Of a stretch of 64,000 nt of DNA, positions 2,421 through 59,914 are shown piece after piece (within the stretch, counting starts at the first letter, position 1; each line of letters opens with the position of its first letter). The notes beneath the pieces are model-generated. The model saw only the letters and a list, made by a program, of their open reading frames with translations. It did no database searches and had not been told where the DNA came from. This DNA comes from an uncultured Bacteroidota bacterium (GTDB taxonomy: Bacteria > Bacteroidota > Bacteroidia > Bacteroidales > WCHB1-69): positions 1,714,165 to 1,778,164 of the forward strand of contig OW818690.1 in the NCBI GenBank assembly GCA_942493315.1, written 5' to 3'. A program made the position numbers and the translations under genes.

Positions 2421-2586
2421 TGCATTAGGGCGGAGGCCAGGTACCCCGCAAGTTGAACAGCATAGTGGTGCACGAGACGGGCAGAGCGACGGAGGAGCTC
2501 CTGCACGGCCGATGCACCACTTGGCTGTGAAACGAGGAGTACAGGCCGGAGACCGACGGCGAGCCTGCGAGCCGGAATGCCCTGAA
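2421..2586 (+). ncRNA. GC-rich structured element A (Flavo-1-like repeat/ncRNA)
   Basis: GCATTAGGG...CCGACGGC...GCCGGAATGCCC termini shared with the 13976 and 14986 elements; internal stems ACAGC/GCTGT and AGTGGTGCA/TGCACCACT. Confidence 0.55.
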
Positions 2587-3471: not shown

Positions 3472-3545
3472 TGGCGGGAACGAGAGTTGAACTCGTGACC
3501 TCCGGGTTATGAATCCGACGCTCTAACCAACTGAGCTACCCCGCC
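3472..3545 (-). tRNA. tRNA with CAT anticodon (non-initiator Met or Ile2)
   Basis: GGCGGGGTAGCTCAGTTGGTTAGAGCGTCGGATTCATAACCCGGAGGTCACGAGTTCAACTCTCGTTCCCGCCA folds as a cloverleaf; G1-C72 paired; CCA not encoded. Confidence 0.95.
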
Positions 3546-12878: not shown

Positions 12879-13859
12879 ATGAGAAAAATAGTATTAACAT
12901 TTCAATTAGTTGTGATTTATTTTCTTTCAAATTGCCAACCCTATTCATCATACTTTGCAGAAAATATAACGAAATACAGTGTTGCTCATACTGTAACTTG
13001 TAAAACAAAAGATTACTCTCCCAATAATTTGGGTGCTTGTATATGGACATTTGAATATAGAATAATAAAATCATTTGCTACAGCTTTTAATGGGAAAATA
13101 TATTATGTAGCATTTAATGAGGCAAATACACTAATGCTTCCTTATCCAAATGAACATGAGGGAATTGTTCTCAGAGAGGACACATCAACAGGAAAACTAT
13201 TTAGATATATAGAATCAATTAATAATGAGGTTTTAATTTGTGATATGTCTCTAAATGAAGGAGATACTTTTCAACTTTTCCCAGCTTACGATATTTCATT
13301 ATCGTATTGGAATGATTATTTTGAAAGAGGGATGAAAGTGGTTGTCGACTCTGTTCGATTTGTCAATGGGAAAAAAGTCATTTACTTTCCCAATATACCT
13401 CAAAGTCATTTTTACAATTCTCCAATTCAATATAATATTTCACTTCGGTTTATTGAAGGAATTGGTCCAACTTATGGTCCTTATGGATATTTTGATTATC
13501 ATGGTTTGGAAAAAGATTTACCTTTGCTTTTATGTGTTGAAAAAGATAATAATCAAGTATTTATGTTGCATGAAGATTTACAATGTCTTCAGTATAGCAC
13601 GTCTGTTAATGATATTGAAACATTAAAATTCAACATATACCCAAACCCGGCTTCCGATCATATTTTCATCTCTTCTGAAAATAATAATTCTGAAATCAAA
13701 CTTTTTATATATGATTTTATTGGGAATGCCGTTGGTCAATATACATTTAACAATAGTATCCAAATTCCAATAAATGATCTTTCAAATGGGATATATACAT
13801 TCATATTTTTAGATCAACAAAATAATCAAACAATAAAAAAAATTGTGATTCAAAAGTAA
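12879..13859 (+). CDS. secreted protein with T9SS type A C-terminal sorting domain
   Basis: C-terminal FNIYPNPASDHIFI...LSNGIYTF...KKIVIQK. Confidence 0.85.
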   Translation: MRKIVLTFQLVVIYFLSNCQPYSSYFAENITKYSVAHTVTCKTKDYSPNNLGACIWTFEYRIIKSFATAFNGKIYYVAFNEANTLMLPYPNEHEGIVLREDTSTGKLFRYIESINNEVLICDMSLNEGDTFQLFPAYDISLSYWNDYFERGMKVVVDSVRFVNGKKVIYFPNIPQSHFYNSPIQYNISLRFIEGIGPTYGPYGYFDYHGLEKDLPLLLCVEKDNNQVFMLHEDLQCLQYSTSVNDIETLKFNIYPNPASDHIFISSENNNSEIKLFIYDFIGNAVGQYTFNNSIQIPINDLSNGIYTFIFLDQQNNQTIKKIVIQK

Positions 13860-13938
13860 TGGATTACAAACTATATACGGACATAATTCGGTTAATGATT
13901 AAATGATTGCTCAATGTGCTCATTTTTTATTTTTCATT

Positions 13939-13970
13939 CGTCCGTAGTCTGTTGTCCGCAGTCCGTAGTC
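13939..13970. repeat. period-7 nGTCnnn tandem repeat
   Basis: cgtccgt agtctgt tgtccgc agtccgt agtc, preceded by TTTTTCATT as at 34461 and 16513. Confidence 0.75.
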
Positions 13971-13975
13971 TTTTT

Positions 13976-14153
13976 TTCAGGGCATTCCGGCTTCCTCCCC
14001 ACAACCCCGCCCACGCCGTCGGCCTACGCCTACAAGTACGCAGTTGCAAAGCGTGGGCTGACTGGTCGTAAAAGGAGCTCACAAGTTCGCTCTTTTACTC
14101 CCACATCCCATCGCTTTGCAACTTTGCGCGCTTTCCGGCTCCGTCCTCACGCG
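13976..14153 (-). ncRNA. GC-rich structured element B (Flavo-1-like repeat/ncRNA)
   Basis: Minus strand GCGTGAGGACGG...CCGACGGC...GCCGGAATGCCCTGAA; 12-bp stem AGTTGCAAAGCG/CGCTTTGCAACT; inner GTAAAAG/CTTTTAC. Confidence 0.55.
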
Positions 14154-14298
14154 AACATAACCACAGGTTTTTGGGTTTTAGGTTTTAGTTTTCAGTTTTT
14201 GGTCCGGTCTACAGTCCCTCGTCTCTTGTCCATTTTCCATTATTAATTATTCACTATTCATTAGTTTGCCGTCCGCCGACTGCAGACTTTCCCCCAAA

Positions 14299-14340
14299 TT
14301 ATTCATTATTCATTATTCATTATTAATTATTCATTCTTCA
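14299..14340. repeat. period-7 TTATTCA tandem repeat, 6 units
   Basis: ttattca x3, ttattaa, ttattca, ttcttca. Confidence 0.85.
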
Positions 14341-14390
14341 TTTAAGATCTCAGGGCTACGCCCCTCTAAATCATCACACACTATTCATCT

Positions 14391-14455
14391 GCTACAAAGA
14401 TCGCACTCCTACGGAGCTGAAAAAGACTACGGACTACGGACCACAGACTACAGAC
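14391..14455. repeat. REP-like half site (ctacaaagatcgcactcctacggagct) followed by period-7 GACTACG/GACCACA repeat
   Basis: Short ctcc/ggag hairpin resembling Bacteroidota REP-like repeats, then gactacg gactacg gaccaca gactaca gac. Confidence 0.5.
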
Positions 14456-14503
14456 ATTCAAATCGCAAAATAGTAGAAAATTTGTAAAACTATACATTTT
14501 TGT

Positions 14504-14794
14504 TGGCATCGGCGTTTCGATACGAAGCTAATTATTTCTTCGATTCATTCATCTATCGTAAAGGCGCTTCTACTCAACGACCTTAGCTTTGTGCAACAAA
14601 TGCTCTACTCTAAGGTCGCTGAGTAGAAACCGCATTTTAGACAAAACTTAAAAATTAAGACAAATCAGGTTTCGTATCGAAGCGCCGACGCCATGAAATC
14701 ACCAAACCAAGGTCGCTGAGTTGAAACCGCATTTTTGACAAAACTTAAAAATTAAGACAAATCAGGTTTCGTATCGAAGCGCCGACGCCATGAA
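14504..14794. repeat. REP/BIME-like cluster: one forward and two reverse ~82-bp units
   Basis: Units 14504-14584 (+), 14612-14693 (-) and 14709-14790 (-). The last two differ at 2 positions with a 97-bp period. All share TTCGATACGAA and CT(A/T)CTCA(A/G)CGACCTT-type ends. Confidence 0.85.
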
Positions 14795-14796
14795 AA

Positions 14797-14824
14797 AGAC
14801 TACAGACTTCGCTGTTTAAAGGTT
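14797..14824 (+). repeat. 28-bp direct repeat, left copy
   Basis: agactacagacttcgctgtttaaaggtt; matches 16480-16507 with 2 mismatches; partial third copy at about 14829-14846. Confidence 0.75.
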
Positions 14825-14896
14825 GAACGCTTCGCTGTTGAAAGGTTTAAAAGTTGAAGATCTGTCAATGCCTAAAAATGGTTGACCGTTAGAAAA

Positions 14897-14980
14897 CTGA
14901 TAGCTGATAACTGATAGCTGATAACTGATAGCTGATAACTGATAACTGATAGCTGATAGCTGATAACTGATAGATGATAA
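14897..14980. repeat. period-7 CTGATA(G/A) tandem repeat, 12 units
   Basis: ctgatag/ctgataa array ending just before element C. Confidence 0.92.
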
Positions 14981-14985
14981 CTTAT

Positions 14986-15164
14986 TGCGTTAGGGATTGG
15001 AAGGGCGCGAAGCGGTACGAGCTGGAACGAGCGCCGCGATGATTAATCCGATTCTGAATGAACCATCTTAAGCGAAGTGCAGCGAAGTACGGGAGCGAAG
15101 CGGACCCCTGAAAAGCCCGACGGCAGCAGGGTTGGGTTGTGGGTTGGCTGGTGCCGGAACGCCC
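14986..15164 (+). ncRNA. GC-rich structured element C (closest to canonical Flavo-1 termini)
   Basis: GCGTTAGGGAT...AAAGCCCGACGGCA...TGCCGGAACGCCC; GCGTT/AACGC and CGGCA/TGCCG pairings. Confidence 0.6.
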
Positions 15165-15168
15165 TTAT

Positions 15169-15208
15169 TAATGTGCTAATATGCTAATGTACTAATATGC
15201 TAATATGC
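15169..15208. repeat. period-8 TAAT(A/G)T(G/A)C tandem repeat, 5 units
   Basis: taatgtgc taatatgc taatgtac taatatgc taatatgc, between element C and the ATPase stop codon. Confidence 0.85.
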
Positions 15209-15210
15209 TC

Positions 15211-16404
15211 TTATCCATTCAAAAGCCATTCCAAGGCATTAATTTTGGTGATCCCATTAAAATCAGTTATAAAATCTTTATCCATGGTGATTAAATATTT
15301 TTGATAATGATCATTGATTTGTTGAAATGGGTATAATTCCCTGTCTAATGTTTCTTTTGATTGATTAACAGAGTAGGATACTTGATAGTATTCCAATTTG
15401 TCATTTTTACGAGCTATAAAATCTATTTCATTTTGGTTTACCTTTCCAATATCAACCTTATACCCCCTTCGTAATAGCTCAAAATAAACGATATTTTCTA
15501 GCGCATGAGTTACTTCTATCTGTCTGTACCCAAGTAAATTATTCCTTAATCCTAAGTCGGACACATAGTACTTGTTTAATGTTTTTAGATATGCTTTTCC
15601 TTTAATATCAAATCGTACAGCTTTGTTTAAAATAAATGCATTACAAAACATATCTATATATTTTTCGACAGTTTCATTTGTCACTCTTTTTCCTTCATTT
15701 TTTAACATTTTTGAAATAGAATGTGGAGATATAAGACTACCTACAGATGACAATACCATCTTCAATATATTCTCTAATAAGTTGATATCATTGACATTAT
15801 TTCTTTTAACAACATCTTTTAAAACGACTGTATTATAGATCCCATCCAAATAGTTAATGATGATGTTTTCATTCGTTTCATTTGATAAAAATGGAAAACC
15901 TCCATACTTCATGTATCTATTGAAAGATGTTTCATGATCTTGTTGAGGCTACTGTGTAGCGTACTCTTTAAAAGATAAAGGTAACATGTTAATTTCTACA
16001 TATCTACCGGATAGCAATGTGGATATTTCGCTCGAAAGCATATATGCATTTGATCCGGTTAAATAAATATCTACGTTATAATCAACGGATAAACTATTCA
16101 CTGCTTTTTCAAATTGATCTACATTTTGAACTTCATCGATAAAAATATAGGAATGATTATTTTTTGATATTTTTTCGGAAATAAGTTCGTATAAACTACT
16201 ATATTCTCTAATAGAATCATATTGAAATGATTCCAAGTTGATATAAATGATTTCATTCTGATCAATTCCGATTTTTTTTAAAAAATCAATATACTGTAAT
16301 AACAGTGTAGATTTACCACATCTTCTGATTCCTGTAATCACTTTAATGACCGCTTTGTCTTTAAAGTCAATGAGCAAATTTAAATAGTTTTCACGTGCAA
16401 TCAT
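15211..16404 (-). pseudogene. AAA_14/DUF4143 ATP-binding protein interrupted by one in-frame TAG
   Basis: GIRRCGKS Walker A, IFIDEVQ, LTGSN, YGGFP and EIDFIA motifs. The two ORFs share a frame: ...ACA CAG TAG CCT CAA... at 15949-15951. Confidence 0.85.
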
Positions 16405-16426
16405 GTTGTTTTTTATATTAAAGACG

Positions 16427-16434
16427 CAAAAATA
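16427..16434 (-). promoter_or_regulatory. -7 promoter box for the ATPase gene
   Basis: TATTTTTG on the minus strand 22 nt upstream of ATG 16404. Confidence 0.55.
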
Positions 16435-16479
16435 CAAAAAATGTTATAGTTTTACGGTTATGGAAGTAAAATAATATTC

Positions 16480-16507
16480 AGACCACAGACTTCGCTGTTG
16501 AAAGGTT
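16480..16507 (+). repeat. 28-bp direct repeat, right copy
   Basis: agaccacagacttcgctgttgaaaggtt. Confidence 0.75.
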
Positions 16508-34341: not shown

Positions 34342-34372
34342 AAAAAAAGGCTCCGTTTGGAGCTTTTTTTTT
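34342..34372 (+). terminator. intrinsic terminator after kdd
   Basis: gctcc gttt ggagc followed by a T-run. Confidence 0.8.
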
Positions 34373-34502
34373 GACTAGGGACAGGTGACTGGAGACGGGG
34401 GAATCTCGATTGCTCGGAATGCTCGATGTGCTCAATGTGCAATTGTACTCGATTGCTCTATTTTTCATTAGTCTGTAGTCCGCAGTCCGTTGTCCGTAGT
34501 CC
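34373..34502. repeat. mosaic of period-7 GAC/GTC and period-8/9 CTCGATTG repeats
   Basis: gactagg gacaggt gactgga gacgggg; ctcgattg ctcggaatg ctcgatgtg ctcaatgtg; agtctgt agtccgc agtccgt tgtccgt agtcc. Confidence 0.8.
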
Positions 34503-46052: not shown

Positions 46053-47693
46053 ATGGAAAAATTTCAATTCAAAAATAGCCTTAAGCTAAACTGGAAATCG
46101 GGACTCACCGTTGCCTTCATAAGTATTCCACTTTCACTTGCCTTGGCTATTGCATCAGGGGCAACACCTGTACAAGGAATTATTACCGCATTTTGGGCGG
46201 GTTTAATTGGAGCATTCTTAGGAGGAAGCCCATTTAATATTATTGGTCCAACGGGAGCATTGTCAGGAATCCTAATCTCTTTTGCTATTACCAGTGGGTA
46301 TTATGGTTTGCCGGTAATTGCTTTTTTGTCAGGTTTAATCATTTTGTTGTTTTATATTTTTAAATTTGATAAATATATCATTTTCATACCCCGAAGTGTT
46401 GTTCAAGGTTTTACACTTGGGGTTGCTTTTTTGATCGCCTTTGGCCAGTTGGATTCCATTTTAGGTGTTACCGGTGTAGAAAAAGGGGAAAATATGATTG
46501 AAAATATTGTAGCTACTTTATCCCATTTTTCTGAAATTAGATGGTCTATCTTTGCTATTTTTCTCGGAAGTGTCCTTTTTATTATCGTTTGGGATAAACA
46601 TATTAAAAAGTTACCTGGATCCATTATCATTGCTTTTGTCGGAATTATAGCTGCAATTATACTACAGAAGTCTCATTCTGCCTACCTTATGACCGTTTTA
46701 TCTGATAAATTTCCTGATATTAAGCCGGTTTTTTTTGATAACTTTTATGCCCATATTAAACCGGAACTTTTTTTGACTAAAAAGATTTGGTCCACCGCTT
46801 TTGCAGTGGCTGTAATCGGAATTCTCGAAACTTTATTATCGGGACAGATAGCCAAACAAATGACTAAAGTGCCCTTCAACAGAACCAGAGAAGTTTTTGG
46901 TTTGGCTATAGCAAATATCGGATCGGGGTTAATGGGTGGGATTCCTGCTACTGCAGCTTTAGCAAGAACCGCTTTAAATATCAAAAGTGGCGCAATAAGC
47001 AGAATCTCCGGCATCTTAAGTGCTTTCTTTTTAGCAATTATTGTATTGTTTTTGTTAACCTTCTTTAAAATGTTACCTATGGTGGTTATTGGTGCTATTC
47101 TATTTGTAGTTGCTTTGAGAATGTCTGAAGTGAAACACTTTATTAAACTGATTTACAATGAAAAAGCTGCTTTTACCATTACAACTACTGTAGCTGTTAT
47201 TACCGTTGTTCAAGATCCCATTATTGCGTTATTGGTGGGTAGTTTTATCTCCTTGTTGATTTTTGTAAACCACGTTTCTTATGGAACTACTGAAGTTACC
47301 TTGTGGAAAGATGCTAAATTGGTTGAGACCTTATTAAGTCCGGCTATTATCAAGAAGGATAAACTCGAAGCAGAACTGATTGTTTATAAAATTTCAGGAA
47401 CACTTACCTATATCAATATGCCGGCACATATTGATGCTGTCAGTAAAATTGTGAATAATAAGTATGTGATTATCTCTTTAAGAAATGCTTTTTATGCGGA
47501 TAGTGACGGTGTTGAGTACTTAGGAGAGCTAGTAGAAATATTAAAATCTTCTAATGAAACCATTTATCTTTCCGGCGTCAATGATATGATTCTAAAAGCG
47601 ATAGAAAAAGAACAATTCTATAAACAAAAGCTTTCTGAAAATAAAATCTTTGAAAGAACCTCTGATGCGATCAGAGAAGTATACGGGATTTAA
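46053..47693 (+). CDS. SulP-family anion transporter with STAS domain
   Basis: GLTVAFISIPLSLALAIASG, IGPTGA, ETLLSG, GGIPATAALART and C-terminal STAS-like domain. Confidence 0.9.
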   Translation: MEKFQFKNSLKLNWKSGLTVAFISIPLSLALAIASGATPVQGIITAFWAGLIGAFLGGSPFNIIGPTGALSGILISFAITSGYYGLPVIAFLSGLIILLFYIFKFDKYIIFIPRSVVQGFTLGVAFLIAFGQLDSILGVTGVEKGENMIENIVATLSHFSEIRWSIFAIFLGSVLFIIVWDKHIKKLPGSIIIAFVGIIAAIILQKSHSAYLMTVLSDKFPDIKPVFFDNFYAHIKPELFLTKKIWSTAFAVAVIGILETLLSGQIAKQMTKVPFNRTREVFGLAIANIGSGLMGGIPATAALARTALNIKSGAISRISGILSAFFLAIIVLFLLTFFKMLPMVVIGAILFVVALRMSEVKHFIKLIYNEKAAFTITTTVAVITVVQDPIIALLVGSFISLLIFVNHVSYGTTEVTLWKDAKLVETLLSPAIIKKDKLEAELIVYKISGTLTYINMPAHIDAVSKIVNNKYVIISLRNAFYADSDGVEYLGELVEILKSSNETIYLSGVNDMILKAIEKEQFYKQKLSENKIFERTSDAIREVYGI

Positions 47694-47783
47694 TTAGCAA
47701 ATTAGCAAATTAGCAAATTAATAATAATAATTCGAGCATTCGAGCACACGAGCACACGAGCATTCGAGCATTCGAGCATTCGA
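47694..47783. repeat. intergenic region made entirely of simple repeats
   Basis: (TTAGCAAA)x3, (AAT)n, then TTCGAGCA/CACGAGCA x6 plus a partial unit, between two convergent stop codons. Confidence 0.9.
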
Positions 47784-59826: not shown

Positions 59827-59860
59827 TTTTTTATTTTTTAAATTTTAAATCCCTACTCTT

Positions 59861-59884
59861 TTGGCTTTTCGGTTCGCCTCGTTT
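59861..59884 (-). repeat. 24-bp leader repeat, copy 2
   Basis: Identical to 59168-59191; upstream of the DUF975 gene. Confidence 0.85.
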
Positions 59885-59914
59885 GAATGGTTTCTGAACT
59901 CCATAAATTTTTTG

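Follow-up and report, generated by a model that had tools for sequence, protein, structure and literature searches.

Introduction

Flavo-1 (RF01705) has been held in Rfam since 2010 as an abundant 'sRNA' (small RNA) without function: it belongs to the curators' class of likely RNAs (Weinberg et al. 2010, PMC2864571) and ranks with the commonest sRNA families (PMC9029176), and we found nothing in the literature on Flavo-1 beyond 'function unknown'. Here we characterize three GC-rich elements, A, B and C, in a 64,000-nucleotide stretch (the window) of contig OW818690.1 from an uncultured Bacteroidota bacterium, which an initial annotation, made from the sequence letters, had likened to Flavo-1 and proposed as a non-coding RNA or a non-autonomous mobile element. 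The three elements represent subtypes within one GC-rich repeat family that forms a three-way junction on one strand, and this family probably consists of mobile or recombining structured DNA repeats related to Flavo-1. The Rfam model represents one arm of the larger element, and the long subfamilies escape current annotation. New in this work are the complete architecture, long subtypes that Rfam overlooks, the rule that paired copies diverge, the occurrences with Y1 genes and in phages, the polymorphism of an orthologous site and the strand bias of a mini-hairpin motif.

Repetitive extragenic palindromic (REP) sequences, with the bacterial interspersed mosaic elements (BIMEs) and REPINs that they build and the RAYT transposases, resemble this family in being high-copy, intergenic and structured, and in forming mosaics of alternating orientation and inverted doublets. 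Likewise, two doublets of the family bracket a single Y1 gene, insertions lack target duplications and copies are rare in promoter-containing spacers. REPs are, however, simple hairpins of 20–40 nt with a GTAG/CGTC tag and are species-specific, whereas the repeats described here are branched, 85–200 nt long and phylum-wide, and the associated Y1 proteins pass an IS200 rather than a RAYT model, with a separate small hairpin repeat nearer to the gene. IS200/IS605 elements and palindrome-associated transposable elements (PATEs) share with the family strand-specific folding of single-stranded DNA (ssDNA), the lack of classical terminal inverted repeats (TIRs) and of target duplications, and a pyrimidine before the left end. 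They differ in carrying two subterminal hairpins on one strand, in direct orientation around tnpA, whereas closed three-way junctions in inverted orientation are found here. We therefore rejected an IS200/IS605 PATE, as the cores are inverted around the Y1 gene and do not form same-strand ends.

A, B and C belong to an extended Flavo-1 superfamily

Relatives of the three elements were collected by scanning 185,579 species genomes for CCGACGGC-N(8-38)-GCCGGAAYGCCC, yielding many chance matches in high-GC genomes and ~35 low-GC loci, mostly in Bacteroidota metagenome-assembled genomes (MAGs), that harbor a related element laid out as 5' GCGTTAGGGATTGCAGCGGAAAGCC, a variable hairpin, GGACTTGYAGCGGAAAGCCCGACGGC, a hairpin and GCCGGAACGCCC 3'; a metagenome scan added 120 loci. 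As loci were gathered by the 3' motif, those columns are invariant by construction. RNAalifold applied to 15 full-length members identified a three-way junction of P1, a 5-bp helix joining both ends, P2, which is the Flavo-1 hairpin interrupted by GNA/GNA internal loops and ending in a variable tip, and P3, a CGGC...GCCG hairpin whose tip is likewise free. The full junction was turned into a covariance model of 93 positions (R1) based on full-length relatives, and we define the extended Flavo-1 superfamily by an end-to-end match to R1, with 5' GCRUKAGG and 3' CCGACGGC-hairpin-GCCGGAAYGCCC.

R1 matches end to end, over model positions 1–93 of 93, at core A (type A, 2422–2582, plus strand, 26.7 bits), core B (type B, 13980–14152, minus strand, 29.5 bits) and core C (type C, 14987–15164, plus strand, 45.4 bits), and nowhere else in the 64 kb. 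These placements lie within 1–5 nt of those in the initial annotation. The window is AT-rich (~33% GC) Bacteroidota chromosomal DNA coding for proteins with a type IX secretion system (T9SS) tail (Por_Secre_tail), PorV, PorP/SprF, FabG and housekeeping functions, in which the cores form islands of 60–65% GC. Both CCGACGGC and CCGGAAYGCCC occur exactly three times in the window, always in A, B and C, compared with chance expectations of 0.19 and 0.37. A chance motif was rejected because motif counts exceed those of shuffled sequences and because R1, in a specificity control, gave 0 matches in 100 high-GC loci (746 kb) where the 3' pattern is present by chance.

All features of the proposed common scaffold are present, namely 5' GCRTKAGG, the 3' block and, in the P3 loop common to B and C, GGGTTGTGGG, which was also found via inverted-repeat analysis. 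In A, P1 pairs GCATT (2422–2426) with AATGC (2576–2580), the long P2 arm spans ~2428–2554, and P3 pairs CGGC (2557–2560) with GCCG (2571–2574) around a short tip, GAGCCTGCGA, followed by a 3' CC tail. In B, read on the minus strand, GCGTG (14152–14148) pairs with AATGC (13986–13982), including a G-U, and P3 pairs CGGC (14018–14015) with GCCG (13991–13988) around the G-rich tip GTGGGCGGGGTTGTGGGGAGGAA, leaving the long P2 arm between P1 and P3. In C, P1 pairs GCGTT (14987–14991) with AACGC (15158–15162), P2 has the base GGGATTGGAAGGG...CCCCTGAAAAGCCC, four matches to the mini-hairpin motif GCGAAG(C/T) lie at 15007, 15072, 15082 and 15095, and P3 pairs CGGC (15121–15124) with GCCG (15153–15156) around the G-rich tip AGCAGGGTTGGGTTGTGGGTTGGCTGGT. 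The end pairings predicted earlier from the letters agree with this layout, as does the divergence of B and C, whose 5' ends face each other while their 3' ends point outward. A and B fold with lower energy than shuffled sequences (z -4.38 and -4.25), whereas C by nearest-neighbour energy does no better than shuffles (z +0.7), yet is dense in GCGAAG(C/T) mini-hairpins. The long P3 tips (e.g., 13992–14014 and 15125–15152) are unpaired and hypervariable, with the G-tract pattern GGG-N-GGG-TTGT-GGG-N-GG, and could by this pattern form a G-quadruplex. A 110-aa open reading frame (ORF) at 13914–14246 on the plus strand, which crosses a heptamer array and, in antisense, core B, is very likely spurious.

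Three copies within 64 kb of a Bacteroidota host conform to the multi-copy, Bacteroidota-borne character of Flavo-1. Nevertheless, Flavo-1 had no match in the whole window at the gathering threshold (42 bits) and none even at E<=10 on 13800–15300 and 2250–2700, and on these two regions the 4227 Rfam covariance models, those of known self-cleaving ribozymes included, gave only chance microRNA-like matches to long hairpins, far below their thresholds. Hence these are not ordinary Flavo-1 copies. The 76-position Rfam model covers the P2 hairpin alone, with P1, the junction and P3 lying outside. We took as characteristic of the Flavo-1 hairpin its base, GGGAUUG-AGCGGAAAGCC...GGaCUUG-AGCGgAAAGCCC, and two 3x3 purine-rich internal loops. 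C retains the outer tier of that base (GGGAUUG...AAAGCCC; GGGAUUGGAAGGG...CCCCUGAAAAGCCC), and in A and B a single GGA/GGA loop is present, the base of P2 is remodelled (GGGCGGAGGCC / GGACGGAGCC) and the arms are longer by 80–100 nt. Short relatives in four loci (L038, L031, L040 and L101) score 61.4, 58.2, 49.5 and 47.7 bits on the Flavo-1 model, above its threshold, which together with the end-to-end R1 matches substantiates the resemblance noted initially. As R1 matches A, B and C throughout and Rfam does not, they are divergent, longer relatives of Flavo-1 outside the family as Rfam models it, to which they add P1, the junction, P3 and extended arms.

The three subtypes recur in many metagenome contigs, as expected of the multi-copy, longer and divergent subfamilies that had been postulated. 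A has a 94.7% identical copy with unrelated flanks in a different MAG (L095) and is matched by 23–46 other loci; B is homologous to L006 4530–4711 and other type B copies; C is 90.8% identical to a copy in L062, with further type C copies in L176, L248, L181 and others.

The fold covaries and is confined to one strand

Among 35 sequences, 95.5% of the modelled positions are paired and 13/21 base pairs show compensatory changes; with 105 sequences these values rise to 96.7% and 15/21, compared with 24–50% paired in controls where the 3' partner was slid by 1–3 columns (30–50% for the 105 sequences). These alignments were fitted to the model and their 3' block was fixed by the search pattern, and it is P1 and P2, outside that pattern, that carry most of the covariation. 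P1 alone occurs as GCGUU/AACGC, GCAUU/AAUGC, GCGUG/CACGC, GCGCC/GGCGC, GCGCG/CGCGC, GCGAU/AUCGC and GCGUC/GACGC, so that the covariation of the end-to-end pairing reported initially for three copies extends to the family, whose scaffold recurs in >150 loci. Stability is asymmetric: of 109 distinct cores, 97 fold better as plus strand (5' GCGTTAGGG) than as minus strand when RNA parameters are applied and 107 when DNA parameters are, and the plus strand is purine-rich (G 36%, A 24%). The structure is therefore under selection on one strand.

Which nucleic acid adopts this fold is less evident. Our main rival explanation holds that the plus strand is a functional structured RNA bound by a host factor, either a multi-copy sRNA or a cis-acting element of untranslated regions that serves as stabiliser, processing site or protein sponge. 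Strong compensatory covariation, the conservation of unpaired purines in the junction and in internal loops, and the clearly better folding of one strand are all compatible with such an RNA, as are the excess of G-U over A-C in helices (15:7), the retention of the scaffold across a phylum and in phage contigs, and the class given to Flavo-1 by the Rfam curators. The loop repertoire points elsewhere. Across the 109 cores, the plus strand contains GCGNAGC 82 times and the minus strand 0 times, and GCGAAGC is present 49 times compared with 2.4 in shuffled cores, whereas GNRA tetraloops with a C-G closing pair are distributed without strand bias and UUCG does not occur. As DNA, d(GCGNAGC) mini-hairpins are extraordinarily stable, nuclease-resistant and poorly bound by single-stranded DNA-binding protein (SSB), while their RNA counterparts are far less stable; natural occurrences of the motif mark sites where ssDNA is recognised, among them the G4 origin, ssiA and N4 promoters (PMC13037366). 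C-GNA-G loops were also found in REP-like hairpins beside Y1 genes. The strand bias of GCGNAGC and its greater stability as DNA thus tilt the balance towards a fold of single-stranded DNA.

The same motif underlies another explanation, according to which the cores are initiation or priming signals (ssi/sso-like) or other host sites of ssDNA handling that spread passively by recombination. GCGNAGC and CGGC...GCCG mini-hairpins are typical of priming sites such as the G4 origin and ssiA and bind SSB poorly, the fold is strand-specific and copies occur in phage contigs. However, A (plus), B (minus) and C (plus) show mixed orientation within 15 kb, contrary to a signal that depends on replication direction, and no chromosomal system with hundreds of such sites is known. 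We consider this explanation very unlikely.

Copies are dispersed with sharp ends and lack a promoter motif at a fixed distance

Copies of the family, 85–200 nt long, are present in >150 loci of Bacteroidota MAGs and metagenomes and in 8 viral contigs. Type A is marked by GCATTAGGGCGGAGGCC..., type B by ...GGGAGTAAAAGAGCGA...GAGCTCCTTTTACGACC... and type C by several GCGAAG mini-hairpins, and a type D of 103 nt also exists. P3 tips are either short (GAGCTTGCGA) or long and G-rich (AGCAGGGTGGGNTTGTGGGTNGGNTGGT) and assort independently of the P2 type. Core ends are sharp (|GCRTTAGGG...GCCC|) with unique or modular flanks, and no target duplication was found in a set of 33 or in a set of 100 flank pairs. 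Immediately before the core stands a pyrimidine (C or T) in 89% of copies, compared with G in 2%.

Where both neighbouring genes are known (84 cores), 49 copies are flanked by tandem, 24 by convergent and only 11 by divergent genes, the last class being depleted. When copies are compared with the closest gene that points its 3' end at them, 50 are antisense and 23 sense. The Bacteroidota -7 promoter motif TAnnTTTG is found within 120 nt upstream of 8/100 copies only, at no fixed distance. We therefore rejected an independent sRNA gene with a Bacteroidota promoter. Moreover, transcriptomics of Flavobacterium psychrophilum recovered Flavo-1 matches in either sense, many of them untranscribed (PMC9723704). 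An intrinsic terminator was likewise discarded, as the core is preceded by a T-rich run and followed by an A-rich run on either strand, the reverse of a terminator. All of these results speak against the RNA explanation, as do the body swaps and presence/absence differences between close relatives described below, which would not be expected of a needed RNA; in its favor, any gene inside a divergent doublet exits via a core in sense. Overall we regard a functional RNA as unlikely, and the non-coding RNA reading of the initial annotation loses ground accordingly. Dispersal, sharp ends, absence of a promoter motif at a fixed distance, mixed orientation and lack of a recurrent neighbour argue for REP- or MITE-like (miniature inverted-repeat transposable element) DNA repeats and not for sRNA genes. 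A classical MITE of the DDE type was rejected, since complementarity between the ends is limited to the 5 nt of P1 compared with TIRs of ~10 nt and target-site duplications are absent. Hammerhead and retron-like readings were also dismissed, the former for want of a catalytic core and the latter because no reverse transcriptase was seen.

All-vs-all comparison of 490 ORFs near copies revealed no recurrent gene family beside the cores apart from generic T9SS-tailed proteins and COG1373-type ATPases; no GIY-YIG nuclease, reverse transcriptase, transposase, recombinase or integrase recurs there. A GIY-YIG nuclease or reverse transcriptase, which had been suggested as a possible partner sharing the termini, is thus not a recurrent neighbour of copies. 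Viral members gave no match to Flavo-1 or any other Rfam family at E<=0.5, and annotated plasmid and phage collections contributed array matches and one weak phage copy only. This copy (L289, 2501–2581, 21.9 bits) lies within what is annotated as the 5' end of a hypothetical gene in the cultured Sphingopyxis phage VSN-002 (MZ127829), and the family thus extends beyond Bacteroidota. On another viral contig (L136, 6271–6876), a gene for a NUMOD4+HNH_3 endonuclease starts beside a partial core. Contigs of relatives tend to end beside the repeats, indicating that short-read assemblies break there.

Cores pair as divergent doublets, two of which enclose a Y1 gene

Inverted pairs of cores within a few kb are divergent in 12 clear cases (the window, L006, L150, L080, L185, L216, L174, L263, L276, L138, L136 and L145) and convergent in one (L191). 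The spacer measures 19 nt to 1.4 kb and contains nothing, small ORFs, a membrane-protein/HTH (helix-turn-helix) pair or a Y1 transposase gene. B and C form such a divergent doublet, the recurrent form of the family, here without a transposase and embedded in a repeat mosaic.

In L006 and L150 the divergent pair encloses a Y1_Tnp gene (146–156 aa), whose product passes the NCBI IS200 model and falls below the corresponding RAYT model. A Y1/HUH transposase had been named as a possible partner carrying the same termini, and such a gene does lie inside doublets, albeit at these two loci only. The Y1 gene of L150 sits in a near-perfect palindrome with arms of 132 nt (94%) and 76 nt (93%) that end exactly in cores. 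Going outward, the arms begin with a small hairpin + GCGTTATATTTGT repeat, continue with a GC-rich segment and an array of 10-mers and end with the core, and the outer limits are exactly GGGCGTTCCGGC...GCCGGAACGCCC. Such a layout is of the RAYT/REP type. This composite was rejected as a multi-copy transposon because its inner arm has a single partial match elsewhere and no second copy of the whole unit was found. An IS21-type element (IstA/IstB) is inserted in the P2 arm of the right-hand core at L150 4825–7335.

A separate dispersed repeat consists of a small GNA/ANA-loop hairpin plus GCGTTATATTTGT, often with CTAC 10 nt away (L290 4340–4585, L148 3800–3950, L006 4871–4899 and 5458–5490). It forms arrays beside Y1 genes, occurs solo in 7 other loci and has the hexamer GCGTTA in common with the 5' end of the core; it is likely the cognate REP of the L006/L150 Y1 clade. 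At L290 4540–4585, heptamers and the small hairpin AAAAACCGCTTATGCGGTTTTG are not followed by a core, and as this module elsewhere directly precedes a type A or B core, the position may be an empty site.

An orthologous site differs by body replacement and inversion

Altered sites were sought at orthologous positions, and the one on a metagenome contig (L284) proved polymorphic. Its T9SS protein is 90% identical to that of the window and the sequences align at 92–93% on both sides of the mosaic. As L284 is a mirror-image (fold-back) assembly with genes and cores duplicated in inverted order, it was read arm by arm. L284 and the window have the same left flank, heptamer array, core orientation and outer boundary (...TTTTTTTCA|GGGCATTCCGGC). 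Homology extends through P3 to GCCGTCGG, beyond which a type A body in L284 stands against the type B body of the window. A 61-nt module is inverted between the two, and window positions 14861–16506 (1.65 kb, containing an array, core C, octamers and a split ATPase gene) are absent from L284, which holds REP-like hairpins instead. In relatives at a greater distance (57% identity), no repeat follows the T9SS gene. Body replacement, the inverted module and the 1.65-kb presence/absence difference thus indicate that the locus turns over quickly, and the breakpoint at the conserved junction accounts for P2 and P3 modules assorting independently. Repeats of this kind drive local rearrangement.

The split gene corresponds to two minus-strand ORFs within 15211–16437, with AAA_14 (15949–16437) and DUF4143 (15211–15912), that look like one COG1373-type ATPase gene. 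In L176 and a small number of further loci, genes for similar ATPases lie close to cores.

These exchanges would also suit recombination sites that bound exchangeable or invertible gene cassettes, with a site- or structure-specific recombinase acting on the ends and junction and the divergent doublets serving as boundaries. The 12:1 ratio of divergent doublets, their varied cargo (a Y1 gene, membrane protein and HTH, ORFs of unknown function, small phage ORFs), the breakpoint between the window and L284 exactly at the conserved junction, the inverted module and the shuffling of P2 and P3 modules are all in line with this. However, no recombinase or integrase recurs near copies, most copies are solo, many doublets enclose no gene, and a recombination site used as duplex needs no single-strand covariation. 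The order of the end motifs (GTT...AAC) is moreover the reverse of integron attC. The latter (5' RYYYAAC...GTTRRRY 3') was rejected as an identity of the cores, since their ends read GCGTT...AACGC on either strand and no integrase is among the recurrent neighbours. We judge the cassette explanation distinctly unlikely.

Sharp ends, dispersal, the polymorphic site and the two doublets with a Y1 gene agree with the proposal of a non-autonomous mobile element. In the reading that we favor, the plus strand would fold as ssDNA when exposed at replication or repair and would be stabilised by GNA-loop mini-hairpins and sheared G-A pairs. An IS200-family Y1 (HUH) transposase of the RAYT kind would recognise, cut and rejoin this fold in trans, which would yield insertions with sharp ends and no target duplication, and ectopic recombination at the conserved junction (CCGACGGC) and at the ends would swap P2 bodies and P3 tips. 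As a complete statement, namely non-autonomous REP/BIME-like ssDNA repeats that are mobilised by an HUH enzyme and reshuffled by ectopic recombination, we hold this with slightly less than even confidence; the Y1 (HUH) enzyme as mobilising agent, taken by itself, is a more tentative proposition. Family membership, the covarying structure, strand asymmetry, dispersal, doublet bias and body replacement at a polymorphic site are shown by the data, and the ssDNA form and the HUH enzyme are inferred from them. The link to HUH enzymes draws on the Y1 gene inside the divergent pair of L006, the palindrome of L150, the 12:1 excess of divergent pairs and the pyrimidine that usually precedes the core. 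Were the ssDNA/HUH reading correct, thousands of 'sRNA' annotations in Bacteroidota would be mislabelled mobile DNA.

Several observations weigh against this HUH reading, in addition to the G-U excess reported above. Cores are present at only 2/4 loci of the L006/L150 Y1 clade (L147-149 and L290 have none on the readable side), distant Y1 homologues come with their own REP hairpins and no cores, and only 2 further loci of ~150 have any Y1 gene nearby. The small hairpin with GCGTTATATTTGT adjoins the Y1 gene and is its more obvious cognate REP, and the layout of L150 could equally result from a Y1 gene landing inside a pre-existing palindromic doublet. No Y1 transposase was detected in the window by tblastn, and of the 53 Pfam families listed for its ORFs, the 25 commonest, which were given for 41 ORFs, include no transposase or other family linked to mobility. 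Conservation across the phylum and in phages contrasts with the species specificity of classical REPs and is more reminiscent of a functional RNA under constraint, or of a host partner that is itself conserved, and the mini-hairpin argument for ssDNA is indirect. Furthermore, we know of no HUH transposase that uses a three-way junction as substrate.

A bolder version of the transposition model, which we consider improbable, is that the superfamily represents the end structure of an unrecognised HUH (Y1) transposon or cassette system with termini that are closed three-way junctions of ssDNA stabilised by GNA mini-hairpins, spread across Bacteroidota and phages of other phyla, in which the doublet would be the cargo-carrying unit and the 7/8-nt arrays would be by-products. 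If true, an orphan 'RNA' of Rfam would at last gain a function, and the substrates known for HUH enzymes would include a new architecture.

Tandem arrays are enriched at cores without being obligatory

Nearly every segment of 13860–15215 has homologues in 3–35 other loci, and on the basis of these matches 13940–15210 is a mosaic apparently built entirely of repeat modules common to other genomes; comparable mosaics exist in L006 and L080. Each of A, B and C abuts a period-7 or period-8 array according to Tandem Repeats Finder (TRF), as initially described. The array 5' of A (2350–2415) is of the AGTCNNN kind (TRF period 14 = 2x7), which also precedes type A cores in L174, L252, L253 and L278. 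The 3' module of A (2586–2615; AATAATAAGCTAATGTGATAAT...) is an octamer-type (TAATNNGC) array of TRF period 8 that likewise follows cores in L006, L248, L253 and others. At the 3' end of B, a GTCCGTA-type heptamer array (13940–13975; TRF period 7 at 13940–13970) is kept in L284 and forms with an AGACTAC-type array at 14420–14455 an inverted pair (I1) of 36 nt, 92% complementary.

Between B and C, a run of heptamer arrays (14169–14342) comprises TTTTAGG (14169–14200), GTCCNNN (~14205–14235), CATTATT (14238–14263) and ATTATTC (14298–14342) units according to TRF, the last matched by 17–21 other loci. It is followed by a D-type small repeat (14345–14418) with two GNA/TAC-loop hairpins (AGGGCTACGCCCCT, CTCCTACGGAG) and CTACAAAGATC, which is 86–97% identical to three copies beside the Y1 gene of L006. 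The E element (14497–14797) is a long hairpin with arms at 14499–14526 and 14671–14698, an inner hairpin at 14568–14628 and a 97-nt tandem duplication to 14797. It has 1–3 homologous loci and is absent from L284, and its Rfam matches are spurious microRNA-like ones, i.e., those of a generic long hairpin. The module CGCTGTTTAAAGGTTGAACGCTTCGCTGTTGAAAGG (CGCTGTT..., 14800–14860), with GCGAAG(C/T) on the minus strand, is 90% identical to L284 1331–1391 in inverted orientation and has a related copy at 16470–16500. All modules from the array 5' of A onward are given as read on the plus strand.

The array 5' of C (14895–14982; TRF period 7 at 14897–14979) consists of ~12 CTGATAG/CTGATAA units (TRF score 124–155). 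Similar arrays occur in 7–9 loci, and matches of 86–89% were found to plasmid arrays of Microcystis, Nostoc and Fischerella, plus a Bernardetia replicon. Short tandemly repeated repetitive (STRR) sequences of cyanobacteria are intergenic tandem heptamers of several sequence families, to our knowledge with no tie to a structured GC-rich core. The CTGATAG array of the window resembles STRRs in this respect, whereas the arrays described here show a 2-3 fold enrichment next to cores and may also lie within P2. On the other side of C, a (TAATRTGC)5 octamer array (15169–15209, plus strand, TRF period 8) forms a 3' module that also follows cores of all types in 16–26 loci. The stereotyped module behind cores of all subtypes consists of a 4-nt linker, (TAATNNGC)2-6 and TAATTATAAATGAA, the alternative module being AAAAAGAC(GACNNNN)n. 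Types A and B are often preceded by a small hairpin, AAAACC-GNA-GGTTTT.

An array of period 6–10 lies within 60 nt of 49% of 103 cores compared with 13.7% of control intergenic positions, on the 5' side in 23% and on the 3' side in 38% of cores, and arrays replace the P2 tip inside cores of L094, L252 and L006. Arrays also stand alone, and cores also occur with unique flanks. The association between arrays and cores is therefore real but not obligatory: the abutting arrays seen at A, B and C are enriched family-wide and yet dispensable, and a spread of cores together with simple-repeat flanks holds in part only.

The position of the arrays is relevant to SINE-like (short interspersed nuclear element) retroposition, in which a plus-strand transcript would be reverse-transcribed and slippage of the reverse transcriptase would produce the A-rich tail and the period-8 arrays. 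The A-rich sequence after the 3' end, the arrays there in 38% of cores, the variable number of units in (TAATNNGC)2-6 and the strand-specific fold match this explanation. No reverse transcriptase is encoded near any copy or among the recurrent neighbours, however, 5' and internal arrays as well as arrays far from cores would stay unexplained, and neither target duplications nor evidence for a promoter was found, making retroposition extremely unlikely.

Stand-alone arrays and other features of the window

Two arrays of the window lack a GC-rich core. One (34369–34502) passes from heptamers to octamers to inverted heptamers in a hairpin-like layout, and in the other (47692–47783), AATTAGCA and ATTCGAGC octamers fill the spacer between two convergent genes. 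Near A, a 507-aa gene has orthologues at 91% and 68% identity, and the relatives' contigs stop just past it, near a tRNA gene. In the window, the latter (3472–3545, minus strand, 65.9 bits, anticodon loop CAU) lies between the 507-aa gene and a small ORF beside core A. Furthermore, the Rfam DUF805 RNA motif (RF03081) was identified at 59846–59909 on the minus strand, with 60.7 bits compared with a threshold of 51.1.

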